DNA of 64,000 bases from Dictyostelium discoideum. Taxonomy: Eukaryota. The stretch lies in contig CM000152.2 in NCBI GenBank assembly GCA_000004695.1, positions 5,760,001 to 5,824,000 of the forward strand, given 5' to 3'. This document shows, piece by piece, positions 5,614 through 31,965 of this stretch (positions are counted from its first letter, which is position 1; every line of letters starts with the position of its first letter). The notes beneath the pieces were generated by a model, which saw only the letters and a program-made list of their open reading frames with translations, was not told where the DNA came from and did not search any database. Made by a program: the position numbers and the translations under genes.

Positions 5614-6175
5614 CTACATAATCGAACATCTACAATTTCCACCACAACCCTATTTATAATATTAATAAATTAGTATTAACTTTTTTTTTTTTTTTTTTTT
5701 GGGAAATAATTAAAAATTTTTAAAACTTACACATATATCACAACCACAACCGAGGCAATCCTACAATTTTATTATTATTTTTTTTTTTTTGTCAGTATTT
5801 CCAAGTTTATTTTTTTTTTTTTATATTTTACTTTAATTTTTACTACTTACACAACCACCAGCCATAGAATATATAACTCTAATATTTGAGGATTCTTCAA
5901 TATGAAGTTTATATAATGATTTTTTATCATATCTACAAGGTAATTTTTTATTTTCCAATTCAATCTAAAAAAAAAAAAAAAAATTAATATATTAATATTA
6001 ATTTACTTTTAATATCTTAAAAAAAATAGGTTAATTTTTTACATACATTAATAAGGTGTGTGTCAGTTCCAGTTCTATCATGTATCATTTCTTTTAAATC
6101 CTCTAAAGATGTATTTTTATCATCAACATCAAAGTCAAGTGTTTCATTACTTGCTAATTTACAATGAACCTTCAT
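5614..6175 (-). CDS. Ubiquitin-like protein ending in GG, with a Cys/Gly-rich C-terminal tail and a CaaX box (copy A), 4 exons: 6047..6175, 5851..5964, 5731..5760, 5614..5649; 102 aa
   Basis: Product: MKVHCKLASNETLDFDVDDKNTSLEDLKEMIHDRTGTDTHLIN|IELENKKLPCRYDKKSLYKLHIEESSNIRVIYSMAGGC|DCLGCGCDIC|GCGGNCRCSIM*. Donors are GTATGT, GTAAGT, GTAAGT and acceptors are TTTAG, TGTAG, AATAG; all introns are phase 0. The beta-grasp domain aligns with ubiquitin, including the terminal ...GG. It ends in C-S-I-M, a CaaX box. Confidence 0.6.
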
Positions 6176-6580
6176 TTTTTTTTTTTTTATTATTTGTATA
6201 GCTTTTTATTTATTTAATTTATATTTTTTTTTTTTTCTTTAAAATTATTTATTTTAATTTCTAATTTATTGACTTTAAATATTTTTTTTTTTTAAAAAAA
6301 TAAAATAAATAATTTTTTTTTTTAAAGATCTATAAAGGAAATAAAAATTAAAAATTAATAAAAAAAAAAAATAAAATATAAAAAAAAAAAAAAATAAAAA
6401 AAAATTAAAAGAATAGATCCTTCACATGTTTGTGCATTTTGGAAAGAATTATAATTTGTATATTTTAAAAGAAAATGCAATGTTTTTTAAGGAAAAGTCG
6501 AATTATTAATTTTTATTAAATTTTTTAAAAAAAGAATTAAAAATTGTTGTTGTATTTATTATTTGAATTGGAATTTATTG

Positions 6581-6620
<40 letters not shown>

Positions 6621-7114
6621 TTAACCAAAATTGATTTTGTGGTTTTGGAATTACATGGACGAAAGAAAAACAAAAAGTAAATTTAATTTTTTTTTTTCTT
6701 TTTTTTTGATTAATTTAAAATAAAATAATATAAAATAAAATATAATAAAATAAATAAATTAAATGTATATTTTTAAAATTTGTTAATTGTCCTTTTTTAT
6801 TTTTTTATTTTTTTATTTTTTTTTTTTTTTGATTTAATAAATAGAAAAAAATTATTTTGTTGGTTGTAATTTTTTATTATTACTTTTTATTATTACTTTT
6901 TTTATTATTTCATTATAGTTATTTAAATATTTAGATTTTTATTTAATATATGATTAATTATTAAATAAAAGTGTTTAGATAATATTTGTTAAGCTTTGGT
7001 ATAAGTTTTTCTTTAAAATTTTAATAGAATTAGTAACCCTTTTATTATTGTTTAAAGTTCATTTGAGTAGATTTCTAATCTTAGAGAAAGGAAAGATTAA
7101 TCTAAGCACTATAA

Positions 7115-7150
<36 letters not shown>

Positions 7151-7177
7151 TTTTCAAGTCCTATTACTTTTTTTTTT

Positions 7178-7991
7178 TCATAAAATATAATAATCTTGAA
7201 ATCTATTTGATGAAGGTAAAGAAATACCACCTCTAACATTACTTGATAAACCCATACTACCACTAACATCAATACAAAAAATTACAAATGAATCGTCTTT
7301 TTCTTTTTCTTTTTCTTTTTCTTCATTTTTATTTTTATCAATTTCTTGATTTGTTGTGGTGGTTGTGGTGTTATTTATAATTTCAGGTTCTAAAATATAA
7401 TCTACTATATTTACCTTTGGAATTTCTTCATCATCAAGAATAATATCATCAGGTATCCAAAATGAAAGTGGTACATCAGGATTCAGTCTTTTCTCCTCTT
7501 CGCCATTAATATTAATATAGTGAAAATAGACAGACACATTAGATCTTGGACGTGGAATGGCTTCGATTTCTTCTTGAATCTTAATTTTCTACGACGATAA
7601 ATATCCTCAATCTTCTCTAATTCTAGACCATTTAAAATAAGTTTCTCTTGTTGACTGGATTCCTCTTTCTCTTTTTGTCTATTTCTTGAAGAGTTTCTTA
7701 ATTTATCCCATTCTTCACTAGTCAGCTGACTATCTTGTGTTTGTTGAGCAGTTGCAGAGCAGGCTGTAGTTGAGCAGGTTGTTGTTCAGCAGGTTGCTGA
7801 GAAGGTTGTTGAGAAGGTTGTAGAGCGGATTGTTGTTGTTCTAAAGAAAGGTCCAATATGTTTTGTTGATGTTTTCGTATAAAAAATCGCAATATTATTA
7901 ATTTTTGTTGCAAGGCAGGAAGATTCCCAGAATCAAGTTCTTCTTCTTCATCCTTGGAAGTAAAAAAATATTTTGATCCAAAATCAAACAT
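7178..7991 (-). pseudogene. Disrupted VWA-domain gene (probable pseudogene or gene fragment) between Ubl copies A and B
   Basis: Three consecutive minus-strand segments look coding but sit in three different frames. They are MFDFGSKYFFTSKDEEEEL…QPSQQPAEQQPAQLQPALQLLNKHKIVS*, then …EEWDKLRNSSRNRQKEKEESSQQEKLILNGLELEKIEDIYRRRKLRFKKKSKPFHVQDL…, then …SNVSVYFHYININGEEEKRLNPDVPLSFWIPDDIILDDEEIPKVN…DDSFVIFCIDVSGSMGLSSNVRGGISLPSS…*. The DxSGSM motif that opens a VWA/MIDAS domain is present, but the ORF stops about 25 residues later. No plausible introns join the frames. A perfect 14-bp palindrome TAGTCAGCTGACTA lies at the first frame break (about 7728..7741). Confidence 0.35.
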
Positions 7992-8332
7992 TTTTATGTT
8001 TTTTTTTTTTTTTTTTCTGAGATGATTTTGTTTTTTTTTTTCATGAAATTTTTTTTTTATTTACAGTTTTTTTGGGAAACATATTATTTTTAGGCTTAAA
8101 CATTAAAAAAAAAGGCTGCGATATTATTCTTTTTTTTTTTTTTTTTTTTTTTATTTTATTTAAATATGGAAATAAAAAAAATAAAAAAATTTATTTAATT
8201 ATTTAGAGAATAAAGAAAACAGATTATTGTTTAACTTATTTAAAAAATTTATTTATTTATTTATTTATAGAATAAAGAAAACAGATTATTGTTTATTTAA
8301 ATCTTTAATTTATTTTATTTTATTATTATTAT

Positions 8333-8394
<62 letters not shown>

Positions 8395-8406
8395 TCAGTA
8401 GTCCAA

Positions 8407-8641
8407 TTATAAAATTGTACAATGACAACCTCCACCTAAACCACAGCAATCACAACCAGCGCCACAACCACCATTAAGGTCATAGAGGACTCTAATGTTT
8501 GGGGAATCTGTTATTTTGAAATTTGATAGTTTCTTTTTATCGAATCTTGTTGGTAATTTTTTACTATCTATTTCAATCTGTAATAAAAGTTTTATAATAT
8601 TAGTAATTGATATTTATTTTTAATTCTTTTACTATTATTAC

Positions 8642-8717
<76 letters not shown>

Positions 8718-8865
8718 TAAAATAAAAAATTACAATTTGGTGTTCAATTGGAATTCCATGAAGGTTATAAATTTTTGACTTTATATCACTAATTGAATTA
8801 TTATTATCAATATCCAATTCTAATATATTCTCTTCAATATTTGGTAGTTGGCAATTAACTTTCAT
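8407..8865 (-). CDS. Ubiquitin-like GG / Cys-rich / CaaX protein (copy B), 2 exons: 8734..8865, 8407..8577; 100 aa
   Basis: Product: MKVNCQLPNIEENILELDIDNNNSISDIKSKIYNLHGIPIEHQI|IEIDSKKLPTRFDKKKLSNFKITDSPNIRVLYDLNGGCGAGCDCCGLGGGCHCTIL*. It aligns with ubiquitin (…GIPPDQQRL…[22 protein letters not shown]). The intron is GTAATT…TTACAG and contains an (AAT)n microsatellite. The terminal C-T-I-L is a CaaX box. Confidence 0.65.
8578..8733 (-). repeat. Intron of Ubl copy B carrying an (ATT/AAT)n microsatellite of about 95 bp at 8622..8716
   Basis: Perfect ATT trinucleotide run on the + strand between the GTAATT donor (8733) and the CAG acceptor (8578). Confidence 0.7.
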
Positions 8866-9356
8866 TTTTATTATCTATTTATTTTACTTTAAATAATTTT
8901 TTATTCAATTATTAAAATAAAATGTTTTTTTTTTTTTTAATTTTTAGTTTTAATTCATTTTTCAATTATTTTTTATTTTTATTTTTTTATTTTTTTTATT
9001 TTTTTTATTTTTTTATTTTAAAATAAAAAAGTCCTTTTCCCCTATTTGGAGGTTTTTTAAATTATGTTTCCTTTGATATGATCTATATTCTAAAATAGAA
9101 AAAAAAAAAATTAGATATTTTCTTAATTAAAAAAAAAAATTAAAAAAATTAAAAAAAAAATAAAATTAAAAAAAAAAAAAAAATAAAAAAAAAGCTTTTT
9201 TATACTTTTAAAGAATAAAAAAAAAAAAAAATAAATAAAAATGAAAATAAAAAATATTGTTTAATTTAAAAAAAAAAATTTCTTTTTTGAAAATGGAATG
9301 AAATTTATTTAGTTTATAAGATATTTATTTTGCACAACCCGCTGATATTTTCAAAA

Positions 9357-9425
9357 TTATTGGACAACACAATGACATCCCCCACCTAACCCCTAAGATA
9401 AAAATAGATTTTTGAATTGTATTAG

Positions 9426-9469
<44 letters not shown>

Positions 9470-9837
9470 ACATACACATATGTCGCAACCTCCTCCACAA
9501 CCACCTTCAAGGTCATACATCATTCTAATATCGGAATTTTCAGAAACTTTAAAGTTTGATAATTTCTTTTTGTCATACTTTGTTGTTAATTTCTTTTTGT
9601 CCATTTCAATCTAAAAAAAAAAAAAAAAAAAAAAGAAAAAAAAATTTTAATTAGTATAATTATTGATTAAAATTATTTTTAATATTTAATAAAATATAAT
9701 ACAATTTGGTTATGAATTGGAGTTCCGGTTTTATCAAAAATTAGGCTCTTGAGGTCATGGATTGATGTTTTTTCTGGATTTAAATCAAACTCTACGGTTT
9801 GATTTTCATTATTTGGTAAATGGCAATTAACTTTCAT
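9357..9837 (-). CDS. Ubiquitin-like GG / Cys-rich / CaaX protein (copy C), 3 exons: 9703..9837, 9476..9610, 9357..9392; 101 aa
   Basis: Product: MKVNCHLPNNENQTVEFDLNPEKTSIHDLKSLIFDKTGTPIHNQI|IEMDKKKLTTKYDKKKLSNFKVSENSDIRMMYDLEGGCGGGCDIC|GLGGGCHCVVQ*. Donors are GTATTA and GTATGT and both introns are phase 0. It ends in C-V-V-Q, a CaaX box. Confidence 0.6.
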
Positions 9838-10556
9838 TTTTTTATTTGTTTAAATTTATTATTCTTTATCTAATATTTTTTTATAAGTATGTAACAAATT
9901 TTTTGTTTTTTTAAAAAAAAATATTTGTATTTTTATTTTAATTTATATTTTTTTTTTTTTTTTTTATATTTTTAAAAAAAACCATTTTTTGACCTGTTCC
10001 CTAAATTATAAATAAAAAATAATCTATATTGTCATTTATAGTATTTTATTAAAAAAAAATTTAGATGTGTAAACCATTCTGTTTAAATTAATTGGTTTTT
10101 TTTTTTTTTTTTTAATTATTTTTTTTTTTTAACAAAACTATTAAAAAATGAAACATTACCATTGCAATTTTAATTTTAGTTTTTTTTATTTTTCCTAACA
10201 ATTCAAGTAAATTCTAAAAAATATAATAAATTAAGAAAAGGAAACTGGTTTTATGAGAATAAAAAAAAAACTATCCATTATTTTATTTTATTTTCATTAA
10301 TGTTTAAATTTTAAAAAAAATAAAAAAAGTGAAAATGGAAATATTATTTTATGAATAATTTAAAGTAACTGAGAAAAAAAAATAAAAAAAAAAAAAAATA
10401 GATGAAACACAAAAAATTAAAAAGACAAAAATAAAATAATAATAAATTGTATAATTTTAGGAATAACTTTAATTTCAATACGAAATAAAAAATTATGTAA
10501 TTTTTATTTATTTTTTATATATATAGTTAAATAGGTTTTATTTTTATAGACTTTTT

Positions 10557-10946
10557 TTATAGAATTTGGCATGAGCAACCACTTGCTACACCACCACCTC
10601 CTTCTAATGAATAAACCATTCTTAACTAATATTTAAATATTAGTATAAATTTTAAAATTAATATTAAAAAAAAAAAAAAAAAAAAAATATATATATATAC
10701 ATATATATATATTTTAAGAATAATAATTACACTTGAGTTTTCTGCTAAATGTAATTTTGATAATTTTTTATTATCATATCTATTTGATAATCTTTTTGTA
10801 TCAAATTCAATTACTTGATTTGAAACAGGTGTACCAGTTTTATAATAAATTATATTTTTTAAATCATTAATGGTGGTTTCTTTTGGATCCAAACCTTCAA
10901 ATTGGATAATCTCTTTTGTACTTGGAAATTGACAATGAACTTTCAT
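10557..10946 (-). CDS. Ubiquitin-like GG / Cys-rich / CaaX protein (copy D), 2 exons: 10731..10946, 10557..10625; 94 aa
   Basis: Product: MKVHCQFPSTKEIIQFEGLDPKETTINDLKNIIYYKTGTPVSNQVIEFDTKRLSNRYDNKKLSKLHLAENSS|LRMVYSLEGGGGVASGCSCQIL*. This copy lacks the intron that sits after QI in copies A, B, C and E. It has its own intron (GTAATT…ATTAG, 10626..10730) after ENSS instead. The ORF-track entry 10626..10946 is the unspliced read-through. It ends in C-Q-I-L. Confidence 0.6.
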
Positions 10947-11650
10947 TTTTTTTATTTTTTTATTTTTAAATTTTATTTTATGTAGGTGAAAGCTATTTAG
11001 AGATTTTAAATAATTAAAAAATTATTTATTATTATTACTATTATTTCAAAATGATTTAAGTGAATAGAAGAATTAAAAAAAAAAATAAAAAAATAAAAAA
11101 GTATTTATAGGATCAAAATTATTAAAAGAAAAATTGACCCGGTCCTCCCATTAATTCTAAAAAAGGAAAAAAAAGAGACCCGTTCAAATTTTTAAAAAAA
11201 AAAAAAATAAAAAAAAAAAAAAATTAAAAATAAAAAATTAAAAAAAAAAATTAAAAAAATAAAAAATTTTAGATCTAAGATTTTCAAAATTTTGTTTTTA
11301 TATTTATCTTTTTTATAATTATTTGAAGATCTTGTTATTGTAGATTATAACATGTATAAACTATTTAGTTTCTATTCTTTTTTTTTTTTTTTTTTTTTTA
11401 TCCAAATTTTCAGAGGGTTTAAAAAAAAAAAAAAAAAGTTTTTATTAATTTAACACATACTTAAAAATTTAAAAATAAGGTAGTATCATAAGATCTACAC
11501 CGAAAAAAATCTTAAAGTAAAAAATACTTTACATAATTTTTATTATTAATTCTTTTTTTAAACACTTTATTTATTATTTTTTTTTTTTTAAAACCTTTTT
11601 TTTTTTTTTTTTTTTTTTTTTTGATTCTACTAAAATTAACTTTTTAAAAA

Positions 11651-12053
11651 CTATAAAATTTGACATACGCATTCACCACCACCAAAACCACATAAATCAC
11701 ATTCACAACAAGACCCACCCAAATCATATAAAATTCTAATATTTGTTGACTCTATAACTTTGAATTTTTTTAATTTAAATTTATCATGTTTTTGAGACAA
11801 TTTTTTATTATTTAATTCGATCTATATAATTTTAAATAAAATAAAATTAAAATCTTTTAATTTTAAATAAAATAAAATTAAAATCTTTTTAAAAAAAAAA
11901 ACTAATAATTTAAACACTTACAATTTGCATATCTATTGGTATTTTTTCTTTTTCATATATAAAACTTTTTAAAATATAAATAGTTGGATCAATTTGTCCA
12001 TTCATATCAAATTCTAATATTTTATCTGTTGGTAGTAAACATTTAATAATCAT
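11651..12053 (-). CDS. Ubiquitin-like GG / Cys-rich / CaaX protein (copy E, most divergent), 2 exons: 11922..12053, 11651..11821; 100 aa
   Basis: Product: MIIKCLLPTDKILEFDMNGQIDPTIYILKSFIYEKEKIPIDMQI|IELNNKKLSQKHDKFKLKKFKVIESTNIRILYDLGGSCCECDLCGFGGGECVCQIL*. The intron is GTAAGT…TATAG and phase 0. It ends in C-Q-I-L. Confidence 0.6.
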
Positions 12054-12492: not shown

Positions 12493-12774
12493 TTATTTCT
12501 TTTTCTTCATAGCTTGTTTACCTTGACCTTTCTTAATTTCTGGTTTACCTCTTTGTTGATCTCTTTCACGAGTTTCTACCTTTGTGAGTGCTTTATCATC
12601 TGTATTACCAATCATATGTCTTGAAATTAATGGTTTTGAATAATATTGAGTTAAATAATCACCAATTAATGGTTTTCTAAGATATTTTAAACCCATATTT
12701 GGACTACCTTCTGGTCTAAATCCAAAAATTCTTAATGATGCTGAATATGCACTTTGTAATTGTCTTGCAATCAT
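12493..12774 (-). CDS. Mitochondrial ribosomal protein mS33 (MRPS33 / yeast Rsm27 family), 93 aa
   Basis: MIARQLQSAYSASLRIFGFRPEGSPNMGLKYLRKPLIGDYLTQYY… aligns with yeast Rsm27 (…[34 protein letters not shown]…) and human MRPS33 (…SRLSARLFGE…). The C-terminal basic tail GKPEIKKGQGKQAMKKKK also matches. Recalled from memory with no search. Confidence 0.6.
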   Translation of the reverse strand: MIARQLQSAYSASLRIFGFRPEGSPNMGLKYLRKPLIGDYLTQYYSKPLISRHMIGNTDDKALTKVETRERDQQRGKPEIKKGQGKQAMKKKK

Positions 12775-25478: not shown

Positions 25479-27871
25479 ATGAAAAATATTTTAAAAATTT
25501 TAATTTTAATTTTAATATGTATAAATAAAATAAATTGTCTTGATGGAGATGGAAAACAATTTAGAATGATAATGTTATTATCAGCCAATGTAAATGATAT
25601 GGGATTTAATAATATGATGAATCAAGGTAGAATTGGAGTTTCAAAGAATTTACAAATTGAAGATTCAAGATTAATAGTAGTAGATGGAGAGAATGATACC
25701 AAAGCCTTAGTTGAACCAATCCTACAAAATGAAGATATCGATTTCGTTATATGTTCTAGCCAAGGTCATACTGTCGCATGTAAATATTTTGCCGATAAAT
25801 ATTTAAAACATCCAACTGTGAAAACCCAATTCTTAATCAGAGGAAGTGGTTCCTCAACAGCCAATCTAATCCAATTCAACTATAACTTTGCCTCATGCAA
25901 CTACATGAGTGGTTACTTTGCCGGTTTGCATACAAAAACCAATAAAATCGGCTTCCTTTCACCGGGCGCCCCAAAGGTGAATGATGCTTGGGTGTATGCA
26001 TTCTGGCTTGGAGCAAAACAAGTTAATCCAAAAATCCAATTTTTCTACTACAACGTAGGTGCATTCTTAAATCCAGACGCTTCCGAAAGAGCCACCAACG
26101 ATCTATTGGAGAGAGGTTGTGATGTCATTGGTAATACATTGGATGATTTCTCAAGTGGTATCACAATTATGTCCAAAGGGTATCGTACGATTGGTACCAA
26201 TGGTTTCCCACAAAAACTGATCTATGGTGAAAAGATTCTATACAGTTATGCCTACAATTGGACTAAACTATTCTTACCAATTGCTATGAGTGTCAAAGCT
26301 GGTATTACCAATAATACCAATGGCTATGGTGATTTCAATCTTGATGAAAGTAAAAACTTTTTCAATATAGAATATAGTTATGGTGTTAGCACTGATACAA
26401 TCAATAGAATGAATCAACAAATTACCTTTTTAAAATCAAATTCAAGATTTACTCATCCATATTATTGTAATGAATATTTGCCAGAATATACTAAAAAAAA
26501 TAATTTAAATTTATCAACTTCACCAACTGTTAATAATTTAATTTGTATTGATCATTCAACATTTTTAAAAATTAATCCACCATTTCCTGGTATGACTTAT
26601 TTAGGTATTTATAATATATCATTAGTTGAAGTAAATATTATATTTAAAAAAAAAAAAAAAAAAAAAAATTATTTATTTTATTTATATATTAATTTTAAAA
26701 TTTTATTATTTTTTTTAAATTAAAATAGGTTGAATTTTCACAATCAATCCAAAATGGTTTTTCAATTACAACTGGTATTTTAATTGGAATTACAATTTTA
26801 ATGATGATTGGTATTATTAAATATAGTAAAACTCCATCAATGAGATCAGCAAGTCCAATTTTCTTAAATTTTATATTAGCCGGTGGTATAATTGTTTATA
26901 TTGGTATAATTGTTTGGGTTGGTCCAATGAGTACTCATTCATGTAATGCTAGACTTTGGTTAGTTACACTTGGTTTTTCAACATTAATTGGTAGTTTGGT
27001 TGTAAAGAATTTTAGAATTTGGTTAATTTTTGATAATCCAGAATTGAAATCAATTAAAATTACAAATTATCAATTATTCCCATGGGTTGGTGCTTGTTTA
27101 GTAATTAATATCATATTAATGGCAATACTAACAAGTGTTGGTGATTTAAAACAAATCGATGCAATGAATATTGATTCGTTAGGTAAATATGAGTATATGA
27201 AAGTTTGTAAAATGAATAGTTCTGGTGCATCAACATTGTATACGATTTTAGCATATTTCGCAGCACTACTATTGGTTGGTGTATTTGTATCATGGAAGAT
27301 TAGAATCGTAGATATTCTAGAGTTTAATGAATCTGGTGCAATTGCAAATACATTATATGCTATTAGCTTTTGTTTATTCGTAATTGTACCATTGATGATA
27401 TCACCACAAGATATGCAATCAGAGACTATTATACTTTGTACAACTGGTTTATTCATTACCACTGCGGCTTTATTGATTATTTTCATTCCAAAATTCTGGA
27501 GAGTATTTAGAAAAGGTGCTAATGATAGTGAAATTAATTTTAATAAAAAGAAATCATCATCAGTTGCAACTGCACGTGCTGAAAGTGGTAGTAAAGGTTC
27601 AAATGGAAATGCTAGTAGTGGTAATAGAACAAATCGTAGAGGAAATGTTGTATCTGGTGATTTTACTGATGATTCTGAATCATCTGTAGGTGATGAAAAT
27701 CAAAAAGAAAAAGAAAAAATAAAAGATGATGTTGCTAATGTTACCTCTGGTGCAGTTTTGGCTGAATTTACTGATGAAGCTTCAGATACAGATAATAATG
27801 AATTTAATGATATTGAATTATCAGAACAACCACCAAGTATTATTGTCAATGATTCAGAAAATAATAATTAA
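25479..27871 (+). CDS. Class-C (family 3) GPCR-like protein. Periplasmic-binding/BMP-like extracellular domain plus 7TM, Grl (metabotropic glutamate/GABA-B receptor-like) family. 2 exons: 25479..26630, 26729..27871 (about 764 aa)
   Basis: Signal peptide, then GFNNMMNQGRIGV…VICSSQGH… (BMP/PnrA-like binding domain). Exon 1 ends …SLVE | GTAAAT and the 98-nt intron ends AAATAG. Exon 2 (VEFSQSIQNGFSITTG…) holds seven hydrophobic helices including NARLWLVTLGFSTLIGSLVVKNFRIWLIF (class-C TM3-like), followed by an acidic Ser-rich tail. Confidence 0.6.

Positions 27872-29444: not shown

Positions 29445-31965
<2,521 letters not shown>

Follow-up and report, generated by a model that had tools for sequence, protein, structure and literature searches.

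An array of five spliced paralogs on the minus strand (positions 5614-12053) of the window, the 64 kb stretch of Dictyostelium discoideum AX4 DNA analyzed here, encodes members of a protein family that is confined to Amoebozoa and, to judge by sequence similarity, is derived from ubiquitin. In each copy (94-102 aa), a beta-grasp domain of the ubiquitin type leads into a short tail that terminates in a CaaX box. We tentatively favor, at slightly less than even chances, the interpretation that these ubiquitin-like proteins (Ubls) act intact, as prenylated, probably S-acylated, membrane-anchored modules convergent with MUB/UBL3, with prenylation, S-acylation, membrane location, non-cleavage and binding partners all as we infer them. 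The original prediction knew of no described family that joins a Ubl and a Gly-Gly to a Cys-rich CaaX tail and, likewise, our literature search found neither a paper describing this family nor any described family of such architecture.

The five genes (DDB_G0282435, DDB_G0282439, DDB_G0282441, DDB_G0282443 and DDB_G0282445; copies A to E) lie where they had been predicted, and tblastn detected exactly five copies in the window. All their introns are of the GT..AG type and in phase 0, and the spliced models deduced from the sequence were largely matched by known proteins. Gene A (5614..6175; 102 aa), with exons at 6047-6175, 5851-5964, 5731-5760 and 5614-5649, equals the annotated AX4 protein XP_640048.1 exactly. 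Its Ubl (residues 1-80) spans 5854-6175, with the Gly-Gly codons at 5854-5859, and its tail, CDCLGCGCDICGCGGNCR-CSIM, ends with the CaaX codons at 5617-5628 and a stop at 5614-5616. The exon at 5731-5760 is a 30-nt mini-exon which, along with every splice site of this gene, is kept in D. firmibasis. Gene B (8407..8865; 100 aa; exons 8734-8865 and 8407-8577) is identical to XP_640050.1 and carries Gly-Gly codons at 8467-8472 and the tail CGAGCDCCGLGGGCH-CTIL (CaaX at 8410-8421). Gene C (9357..9837; 101 aa; exons 9703-9837, 9476-9610 and 9357-9392) corresponds exactly to KAM9964096.1 from another D. discoideum strain; after the Gly-Gly (9500-9505), its tail reads CGGGCDIC and, across an intron that follows CDIC as it does in gene A and DDB_G0293906, GLGGGCH-CVVQ (CaaX at 9360-9371).

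Gene D (10557..10946; 94 aa; exons 10731-10946 and 10557-10625), in which the mid-Ubl intron is absent, has its Gly-Gly codons at 10596-10601 and the tail GGVASGCS-CQIL (CaaX at 10560-10571). The AX4 annotation of this gene uses a later donor, adding VIIILKIYIY to give 104 aa, while our model is consistent with P0028 and with P0026 from another strain (97% identity). Finally, gene E (11651..12053; 100 aa; exons 11922-12053 and 11651-11821), identical to XP_640053.1, encodes Gly-Ser (11711-11716) where ubiquitin has its residues 75-76, ahead of the tail CCECDLCGFGGGECV-CQIL (CaaX at 11654-11665).

The genes are transcribed and regulated. According to published RNA-seq tables, A, B, C and D are hardly expressed during feeding and are switched on when cells terminally differentiate. 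Transcripts of gene A reached 1397 TPM in stalk and 228 in spore vs. 0.37 in vegetative cells, those of gene B 498 in spore and 415 at hr24 vs. 0.15, and those of gene C 327 in spore vs. 0. Gene B is listed in UP_Hr24_gradual and gene D, which is up at 24 h, in UP_Hr24_rapid. This abundant and cell-type-specific expression, together with the evidence from selection, synteny, splice sites and orthologs, refutes the notion that the copies are duplicates in decay or open frames that arose by chance in AT-rich sequence, to which we give practically no credence. One true pseudogene, DDB_G0282437_ps, does sit within the array; however, dN/dS values span 0.05-0.29 with synonymous sites saturated, D. 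firmibasis has the same gene order E-D-C-B-A and the same flanking genes, splice sites are conserved, and orthologs occur throughout Eumycetozoa. Every major dictyostelid clade that was sampled has members, as does the protosteloid amoeba Planoprotostelium, and both the Gly-Gly and the CaaX box are conserved from Cavenderia to Dictyostelium as well as in Planoprotostelium.

The predicted ubiquitin-type domain was confirmed by similarity far beyond chance: the family profile aligned with ubiquitin with an hhalign probability of 97.8% (E 8e-13) and the Gly-Gly in register, and phmmer against the PDB aligned residues 14-82 of copy B with ubiquitin 12-77. PF00240 was matched by 17 of 21 members. 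In AF2 models, residues 1-75 had pLDDT values of 86-91, and the tail (pLDDT <40) was without predicted structure. The best Foldseek matches were ubiquitin (target TM 0.87-0.91, rmsd 1.3-1.9 A), with NEDD8 and SUMO as further structural neighbours. The domain is approximately 26% identical to ubiquitin, without Arg72 and Arg74 (replaced by D/S/N/G and variable residues). In place of the Ile44/His68 recognition patch the Ubl has charged residues, and it would therefore serve, at the membrane, to dock or regulate partners of its own rather than canonical ubiquitin receptors.

The CaaX boxes of copies A to E are CSIM, CTIL, CVVQ, CQIL and CQIL, as predicted, and are conserved. A C-terminal CaaX was present in 26 of the 26 members examined, with two annotated exceptions being mis-modelled genes whose real ends are CIIM and CNIL. 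Among the 24 tabulated members, a2 was Ile in 23 and Val in one, X was only L, M, Q or I, a1 was unconstrained, and a Cys stood at -2 of the box in 23. The CaaX rules for FTase and GGTase-I are established, and the residue preferences suggest that the box acts like a functional prenylation box. It would thus be farnesylated if X is M or Q and geranylgeranylated if X is L, with subsequent trimming of aaX and methylation of the new C-terminus. S-acylation of the virtually invariant Cys two residues upstream (C-x-C-aaX), and probably of more tail Cys, would fix the Ubl near the bilayer, at the cytosolic membrane face of spore and stalk cells undergoing terminal differentiation.

The tail follows the motif GG-C..GCD[IL]CGCGG.C[RH]C-aIX. 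In the five copies it measures 12-22 aa, instead of the 18-27 aa first estimated, and tails of 19-22 residues contain 5-9 Cys with CxC and CxxC motifs. The description of all five tails as Cys/Gly-rich fails for copy D (GGVASGCSCQIL; 12 aa), which has lost the Cys-rich motif, as it holds two Cys only; one Cys of the motif is also lost in copies B, C and E. A gene A-type tail recurs in Tieghemostelium, Cavenderia and D. purpureum, and tails are near-identical where Ubl identity is about 30%. The dN/dS ratios (tail 0.06, Ubl 0.13) indicate purifying selection on both parts, with the tail, including its non-Cys residues (GCD[IL]CGCGG), better conserved. This counts against an intact anchor, since a simple lipid anchor or linker needs no such conservation.

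It matches, moreover, the pattern of FAU, where conservation is stronger in the fused extension than in the Ubl, and thereby favors a processed precursor. A deubiquitinase-type protease would cut after the Gly-Gly, releasing a conjugatable free Ubl and a lipidated Cys-rich peptide of 12-22 residues, prenylated and carboxymethylated, that might be retained at the membrane or be exported in the manner of the a-factor pheromones of fungi; the chief role of the Ubl would be that of a leader or chaperone for a peptide too short for translation alone. We regard this, the main alternative, as somewhat unlikely. The Gly-Gly speaks for it, and against an intact protein, as it lies exactly at ubiquitin 75-76 in all members but E, among roughly 30%-identical domains, behind a conserved hydrophobic residue 73 (Leu/Met), in species from Planoprotostelium to Dictyostelium, with a Cys directly after it in nearly all members. 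In other Ubls, a retained Gly-Gly plus an extension usually signals proteolytic processing, as in Ub-L40, Ub-S27a, FUBI-eS30, NEDD8, SUMO and ISG15. Expression limited to terminal differentiation, when Dictyostelium peptide signals act, fits as well. However, general DUBs and the ubiquitin E1 require Arg72 and Arg74, so that, with both replaced, the family would need a protease and an E1 dedicated to it, and the junction Gly-Gly may belong to the tail motif because the tail is Gly-rich.

Copies D and E lean toward the intact, anchored protein over cleavage after the Gly-Gly. The diglycine predicted in all five copies was found in A to D, whereas the apparent GG of AX4 copy E is AX4-specific and one residue out of register. 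DLDGSCC is the sequence in the copy E orthologs of three wild strains and of D. firmibasis, and no strain or species has a Gly-Gly at 75-76; yet the open frame, the splice sites, a constrained tail (dN/dS 0.06) and a constrained Ubl (0.29) are retained, which argues that an uncleavable Ubl-tail fusion is functional. Copy D keeps C-x-C-aaX alongside the most constrained Ubl of the five (0.05), a pattern suggesting that Ubl and lipid box are selected together even with an otherwise empty tail; cleavage would here release a featureless 9-mer.

Cys spacing and the residues Asp, Ile/Leu and Gly are strictly conserved family-wide. Such conservation, not usual in Cys strings that are only acylated, might also reflect metal chemistry in the tail, combinable with an intact or a cleaved protein. 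In that case C-x3-C-D-[IL]-C-G-C-G-G-x-C-[RH]-C would fold around Zn(II), Cu(I), Cd or an Fe-S cluster, giving a membrane-tethered, prenylated metallothionein-like metal buffer or store in dormant spores and dying stalk cells, with the Ubl providing solubility or turnover control. We consider this improbable. The Cys density supports it, and the segment resembles CGCGSGCKC in type 1/2 metallothioneins of plants and the Cu(I) motifs, CxCx3CxC, in copper sensors of fungi; plants do have prenylated metal-binding proteins (HIPPs). However, the earlier label of metallothionein-like holds for composition only, as isolated tails, searched with a threshold as lax as E<=10, had no match among Pfam families, metallothioneins included. 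Further, the motif is absent in copy D and short of one Cys in B, C and E, the genes are off during feeding, a stage at which bacterial prey would be expected to cause metal stress, lipidation would use up the CaaX Cys and probably its neighbour, and the tail is disordered in AF2, though AF2 models no metals.

For the intact, lipid-anchored protein that we favor, MUB/UBL3 would be the nearest functional analogue, with a parallel role and an independent origin from ubiquitin itself. Both have approximately 100-120 aa, a beta-grasp domain, a CaaX box and a conserved Cys just upstream. MUB/UBL3 proteins are prenylated and membrane-anchored and have no C-terminal glycines (PMC10511055). The original assignment to the MUB/UBL3 type thus stands as an analogy and not as homology: with the proteins of plants, animals and fungi, the family shares only the fold, since its profile gave an hhalign probability of 2.4% against a validated UBL3 sequence, no member matched PF13881, and no MUB chain was among the best 50 structural matches. 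It also differs in retaining the Gly-Gly in ubiquitin register, in the conserved GCD[IL]CGCGG motif that MUB linkers lack, and in being Amoebozoa-restricted and terminal-differentiation-specific.

Ub-eL40, Ub-eS31 and FUBI-eS30 (FAU) resemble the family in having a ubiquitin-family domain up to the Gly-Gly and then a short Cys-containing extension in the same ORF. In the family, however, this extension is non-ribosomal and ends in a CaaX box, the Ubl is divergent and without Arg72/Arg74, any cleavage is putative, and one paralog has lost the Gly-Gly yet is retained. Fungal a-factor precursors release a short, farnesylated and methylated CaaX product from an N-terminal leader, as the family putatively might, but their leaders are not Ubls, and Ste24/Axl1 remove them at sites other than a Gly-Gly. 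Metallothioneins and HIPPs share the CxC and CxxC density, and HIPPs are a precedent for a metal site plus a CaaX anchor; the family segment, with its putative metal binding, is much shorter than any metallothionein and has no sequence-family match, and HIPPs use an HMA domain. Finally, the last six residues, C-[RH]-C-a-I-X, are laid out like C-K-C-V-L-S in the dual-lipidated H-Ras C-terminus CMSCKCVLS, which carries farnesyl on the CaaX Cys and palmitate on the Cys upstream of it, and the residues preferred at a2 and X agree with prenyltransferase rules. In contrast to the H-Ras/N-Ras/paralemmin type, the family carries this motif on a Ubl rather than a GTPase, with four to seven more conserved Cys upstream.

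The five minus-strand ubiquitin-like (Ubl) paralogs A (DDB_G0282435, window 5614-6175), B (DDB_G0282439, 8407-8865), C (DDB_G0282441, 9357-9837), D (DDB_G0282443, 10557-10946) and E (DDB_G0282445, 11651-12053) lie in an extremely AT-rich window, and their introns are all of the GT..AG type, in phase 0, 81-156 nt long and with a G+C content of 5-13%. The spliced models of A, B and E, with products of 102, 100 and 100 aa, were letter-for-letter identical to the annotated proteins. Protein C (101 aa) exactly matched an annotated protein of another D. discoideum strain, and D (94 aa) was 97% identical to its ortholog in another strain (P0026). When the five proteins were used as tblastn queries, exactly five copies of the family (a ubiquitin-type domain plus a short tail ending in a CaaX box) were recovered in the 64 kb. 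Together, these results bear out the original prediction of five spliced paralogs on this strand.

Public annotation of the array differs from these models at D and probably at C. The AX4 model of D (104 aa) employs a later splice donor, which inserts VIIILKIYIY into the last beta-strand (window 10626-10730, minus strand), whereas the 94-aa model is consistent with the paralogs as well as with the way other strains and species are annotated. The exact spliced form of C has no AX4 accession on record; since this protein is recorded for another strain and not for AX4, the AX4 model of DDB_G0282441 is probably different and might, for instance, run on through the last intron (window 9393-9475, minus strand) to ...CDICVCLI and a stop. 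The single intron of B, which at 156 nt exceeds all others in the array, owes its length to a long (AAT)n microsatellite (window 8630-8722, minus strand). Between A and B lies the annotated pseudogene DDB_G0282437_ps (ORFs 7178-7991, minus strand), which includes a vWA-like 'FVIFCIDVSGSMG' stretch and shows low, spore-enriched expression (11 TPM); no gene is called between the A and B copies of D. firmibasis. Elsewhere in the window, the peptide NQILKFFTTKLPINVEKPSVTN is encoded twice on the minus strand, about 4 kb apart (26959-27024 and 30942-31007; tblastn), and further matches lie close by at ~27193-27225 and ~31149-31208, evidence of a duplicated stretch or a pair of genes.

The N-terminal part of the family is ubiquitin-like in the strict sense. 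In a phmmer search against PDB sequences, residues 14-82 of B aligned to ubiquitin 12-77, and a profile of 20 members aligned to ubiquitin 9-76 over 68 columns (hhalign probability 97.8%, E 8e-13), with the family Gly-Gly falling on G75-G76. At E<=0.01, the ubiquitin family PF00240 was matched by 17 of the 21 members, with 6e-10 as the best value; among the five window copies, only D exceeded its gathering score (27.6 vs. 25.4). A first AF2 run on 18 close sequences reached a pLDDT of 55 and was left out of the fold search, while a second, based on 21 more diverse sequences, modelled residues 1-75 of copy A at a pLDDT of 86-91. In a Foldseek search of the PDB, ubiquitin was the top match, followed by NEDD8 and SUMO (target TM 0.87-0.91, rmsd 1.3-1.9 Å). 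The beta-grasp domain initially proposed is supported by profile, Pfam and structural comparisons alike. The family alignment further showed that the ubiquitin structural residues K27, I30, G35, P37, Q41, L43, K48, L50 and D52 are retained; in the Dictyostelium copies, Glu and Arg replace the Ile44/His68 recognition patch, and neither Arg72 nor Arg74 is kept.

A terminal Gly-Gly, through which conjugating members of the ubiquitin family are attached by an E1/E2 cascade once processing has exposed it, had been proposed for all five copies. In the ubiquitin register it occurs in copies A, B, C and D and in every distant ortholog; E, however, carries Gly-Ser at ubiquitin positions 75-76. AX4 copy E reads YDLGGS, so that the Gly-Gly noted previously is one residue out of register, and even this is peculiar to AX4, the sequence in wild strains and in D. 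firmibasis being YDLDGS.

The tail, i.e., the residues after ubiquitin positions 75-76, continues this junction in the family consensus [LM]-x-G-G-C-(x1-5)-G-C-D-[IL]-C-G-C-G-G-x-C-[RH]-C-a-I-X. Tails measured 12-22 aa, rather than the 18-27 aa first estimated, and the Cys-rich character ascribed to all of them fails in D, whose tail has 12 residues with two Cys (GGVASGCSCQIL). All five CaaX boxes, on the other hand, were as originally described. Across 24 members, the a2 position was Ile in 23 and Val in one, a1 was free, X was L (12), M (6), Q (4) or I (2), and 23 had a Cys at -2, resulting in C-x-C-aaX, a layout also found in H-Ras. The box matches prenyltransferase rules, with an X residue accepted by FTase or GGTase-I, and is a putative prenylation site.

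Relatives were sought by word-indexed and exhaustive profile searches. Because repeat scores add up, the profile search, which covered 1.84 billion representatives, was swamped by polyubiquitins, and family members were picked as single-stretch, full-length matches of ~100 aa. The family was found in D. citrinum, D. firmibasis, D. dimigraforme, D. purpureum, Polysphondylium violaceum (two tandem copies), Tieghemostelium lacteum, Cavenderia fasciculata (two copies) and Heterostelium album, and D. discoideum itself has a sixth copy elsewhere in its genome, DDB_G0293906. The latter is flanked by two large polyketide synthase genes and adjoins a reverse-transcriptase element. A further member was carried by the protosteloid amoeba Planoprotostelium fungivorum, which suggests that the family predates aggregative multicellularity. 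An intronless member (…NLHGGCAGACDICGCGGSCRCDII) beside an LSM gene was observed on a non-dictyostelid contig of Logan SRR29757259 (1097 bp, 43% G+C), and a metagenome scan returned 393 pattern matches with no relative among them. In every source, the database names of the family proteins were hypothetical or 'ubiquitin-like domain-containing'.

The array itself is conserved in D. firmibasis, where the order E-D-C-B-A and the flanks, MRP-S33 and SNARE, are the same; by this synteny, the 93-aa ORF adjoining E in the window (12493-12774, minus strand) corresponds to mitochondrial ribosomal protein S33. A 190-aa D. firmibasis model with an MRP-S33 domain (locus L003, 6088-7121) overlaps an unannotated E ortholog (exons 6739-6870 and 6951-7118) and is a probable merged annotation. 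P0177, a D. dimigraforme protein (ACTA71_010371), has a C-like N-terminal half (…EKTSIHDLKSLI…TGTPIHNQ) and an A-like C-terminal half (…LPCRYDKKSL…CDCCGCGCDICGCGGNCRCSIM), a mosaic that could be due to a chimeric gene model or to conversion between paralogous genes. Gene neighbourhoods offered no hint of partners: an E1, a DUB, a prenyltransferase or a transporter was never seen as a conserved neighbour, whether in D. firmibasis, D. purpureum and P. fungivorum or at the DDB_G0293906 locus.

Two members appeared to be exceptions with regard to the CaaX end. Cavenderia DFA_10590 (locus L006, 1501-2065) seemed to be without the box because its annotation was spliced across the stop codon; on DNA, the ORF ends in ...CDICGTGCIIM, with a corrected product of 93 aa. 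The 589-aa public model of Heterostelium album PPL_06719 (locus L007, 1501-3804) merges this gene with the adjacent RNase HII gene, and taking into account a missed GTAAGT..TTTTAG intron leads to ...CGCGGECC-CNIL and a product of 97 aa. With these two corrected models, all 26 members examined end in CaaX.

Conservation of the tail exceeded that of the fold. The tails of Planoprotostelium (GGCGMGCDICGCGGGCRCEIL) and DDB_G0293906 (GGCCGVGCDICGCGGSCRCSIQ) are nearly identical, while the Ubl domains at the Planoprotostelium-D. discoideum distance share only ~30-40% identity. A comparison of D. discoideum with D. firmibasis gave a pooled dN/dS of 0.13 over the 406 codons of the Ubl and of 0.06 over the 91 codons of the tail, where synonymous sites are saturated. 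Among the copies, Ubl constraint was weakest in E (dN/dS 0.29) and strongest in D (0.05).

It is unlikely, in our estimation, that the main function of the tail is to form a metal cluster, a separate hypothesis that can be combined with either of the readings discussed below. Six isolated tails yielded no Pfam match at E<=10, metallothioneins included, which is weak negative evidence against membership in a metallothionein family, as the composition filters of HMMER may penalise short Cys-rich queries; metal binding by the tail, which in metallothioneins takes the form of stoichiometric metal-thiolate clusters, is kept as a chemical hypothesis. No Dictyostelium metallothionein was named in the Dictyostelium metal papers examined, and, if the tail does bind metal, the family would supply a candidate metallothionein-like protein for Dictyostelium. 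Mimicry of a radical-SAM Fe-S motif by the C-x3-C-x2-C spacing of some tails was also considered and dropped, because A-type tails, copy E and the second Cavenderia copy do not keep this spacing. In the AF2 model the tail is unstructured, although the second run is uninformative on this region.

A conserved Gly-Gly followed by a lipidation signal may be a processing site or a hinge, a question here posed in a genetically tractable organism. We tentatively favour an intact, lipid-anchored Ubl. By established CaaX biology, the box would be prenylated, trimmed of aaX and methylated, and neighbouring Cys would probably be S-acylated, with the result that the protein would be attached to membranes. 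Processing of a precursor after Gly-Gly would account for the exact ubiquitin register of these glycines across the family, for the conserved hydrophobic residue at position 73 and for a tail more conserved than the Ubl, as is likewise the case for the extension of FAU. However, E has been without Gly-Gly since before the split of D. discoideum and D. firmibasis and is still intact, with both parts constrained, which argues against processing being essential. D, in turn, lost the Cys motif yet retains C-x-C-aaX at the end of a protein whose Ubl is more constrained than that of any other copy in the array; the simplest account of this is that Ubl and lipid anchor act in one molecule. Further, the Gly-Gly at the junction belongs to a Gly-rich motif as well, and the family lacks Arg72 and Arg74, on which both general DUBs and the ubiquitin E1 depend. 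These features argue for the intact Ubl over a cleaved precursor, which we regard as a somewhat unlikely alternative.

Should the Gly-Gly be processed, the family would be categorically new, beyond a lipid-anchored Ubl. In its most specific and rather improbable form, a dedicated protease would cut the Ubl leader after Gly-Gly, releasing a new conjugatable Ubl and a prenylated, carboxymethylated Cys-rich lipopeptide (consensus C..GCDICGCGG.CRC-prenyl, farnesylated or geranylgeranylated) that would act as a membrane-bound metal/redox cluster or as an exported signal in spore and stalk maturation. If true, a protease-cut Ubl leader would represent a way of making lipidated peptides that is not known from any eukaryote.

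Expression of the family was retrieved from the supplementary RNA-seq tables of Rosengarten et al. 2015 (PMC4403905, Additional file 7) and Kin et al. 2018 (PMC6198379, file 5). In the former, B and C belong to UP_Hr24_gradual and D to UP_Hr24_rapid, and A is listed in UP_Hr01 and DOWN_Hr01_rapid. In the latter, which combines developmental levels from Parikh 2010 (hr20 and hr24) with cell-type TPM, A reached 211 at hr20 and 598 at hr24, with 41 in cup, 228 in spore, 1397 in stalk and 0.37 in vegetative cells. The corresponding values, in the same order, were 11, 415, 14, 498, 40 and 0.15 for B, 0.57, 15.5, 2.6, 327, 5.9 and 0 for C, and 1.4, 0, 2.5, 15, 1.0 and 0.23 for DDB_G0293906. The family gene IDs were absent from the supplements of Glockner 2016. 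The family is essentially off in feeding amoebae and on at terminal differentiation, with different paralogs allotted to spores and to stalk, which ties an unstudied Ubl family to the terminal differentiation of social amoebae.

Searching the literature by gene ID, by UniProt ID and by architecture brought up no paper mentioning these genes or this architecture and, as anticipated, no described family with a Ubl-Gly-Gly followed by a Cys-rich CaaX tail in the searchable literature. The family is real, conserved and expressed, and undescribed in that literature. Its layout of Gly-Gly plus extension is common to the ubiquitin-fusion precursors UBA52, RPS27A and FAU; the extension of these, however, is ribosomal eL40, eS31 or eS30, in contrast with the Cys/Gly peptides of 12-22 aa without Pfam match in the family.

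The nearest functional analogue is MUB/UBL3, a prenylated, membrane-bound ubiquitin fold whose CaaX box is, according to a MUB/UBL3 review, unique to UBL3 among Ubls and which is without C-terminal glycines (PMC10511055). The MUB/UBL3-type reading offered as one of two at the outset holds for the ubiquitin fold, the CaaX box and the upstream Cys, which both share, but not for sequence membership or for the end of the domain, glycine-less in MUB/UBL3 and with Gly-Gly kept in register in the present family. PF13881 (MUB/UBL3) gave no match in 21 members at E<=0.01 or in the five window copies at E<=1, and the family profile scored 2.4% against human UBL3 in hhalign, with a UBL3 sequence validated against PDB 2GOW (E 6e-77) and able to detect AtMUB3. 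On these results, together with the structural search, homology to MUB/UBL3 was rejected. Membrane anchoring of MUB/UBL3 depends on prenylation, and these proteins bind E2 enzymes. The present family would work like a MUB without belonging to that group: as a convergent derivative of ubiquitin itself, it is a second case in which a ubiquitin fold and a putative CaaX lipid anchor were combined, here by amoebae, which retained the Gly-Gly of ubiquitin and added a short Cys motif under tighter conservation than the fold.
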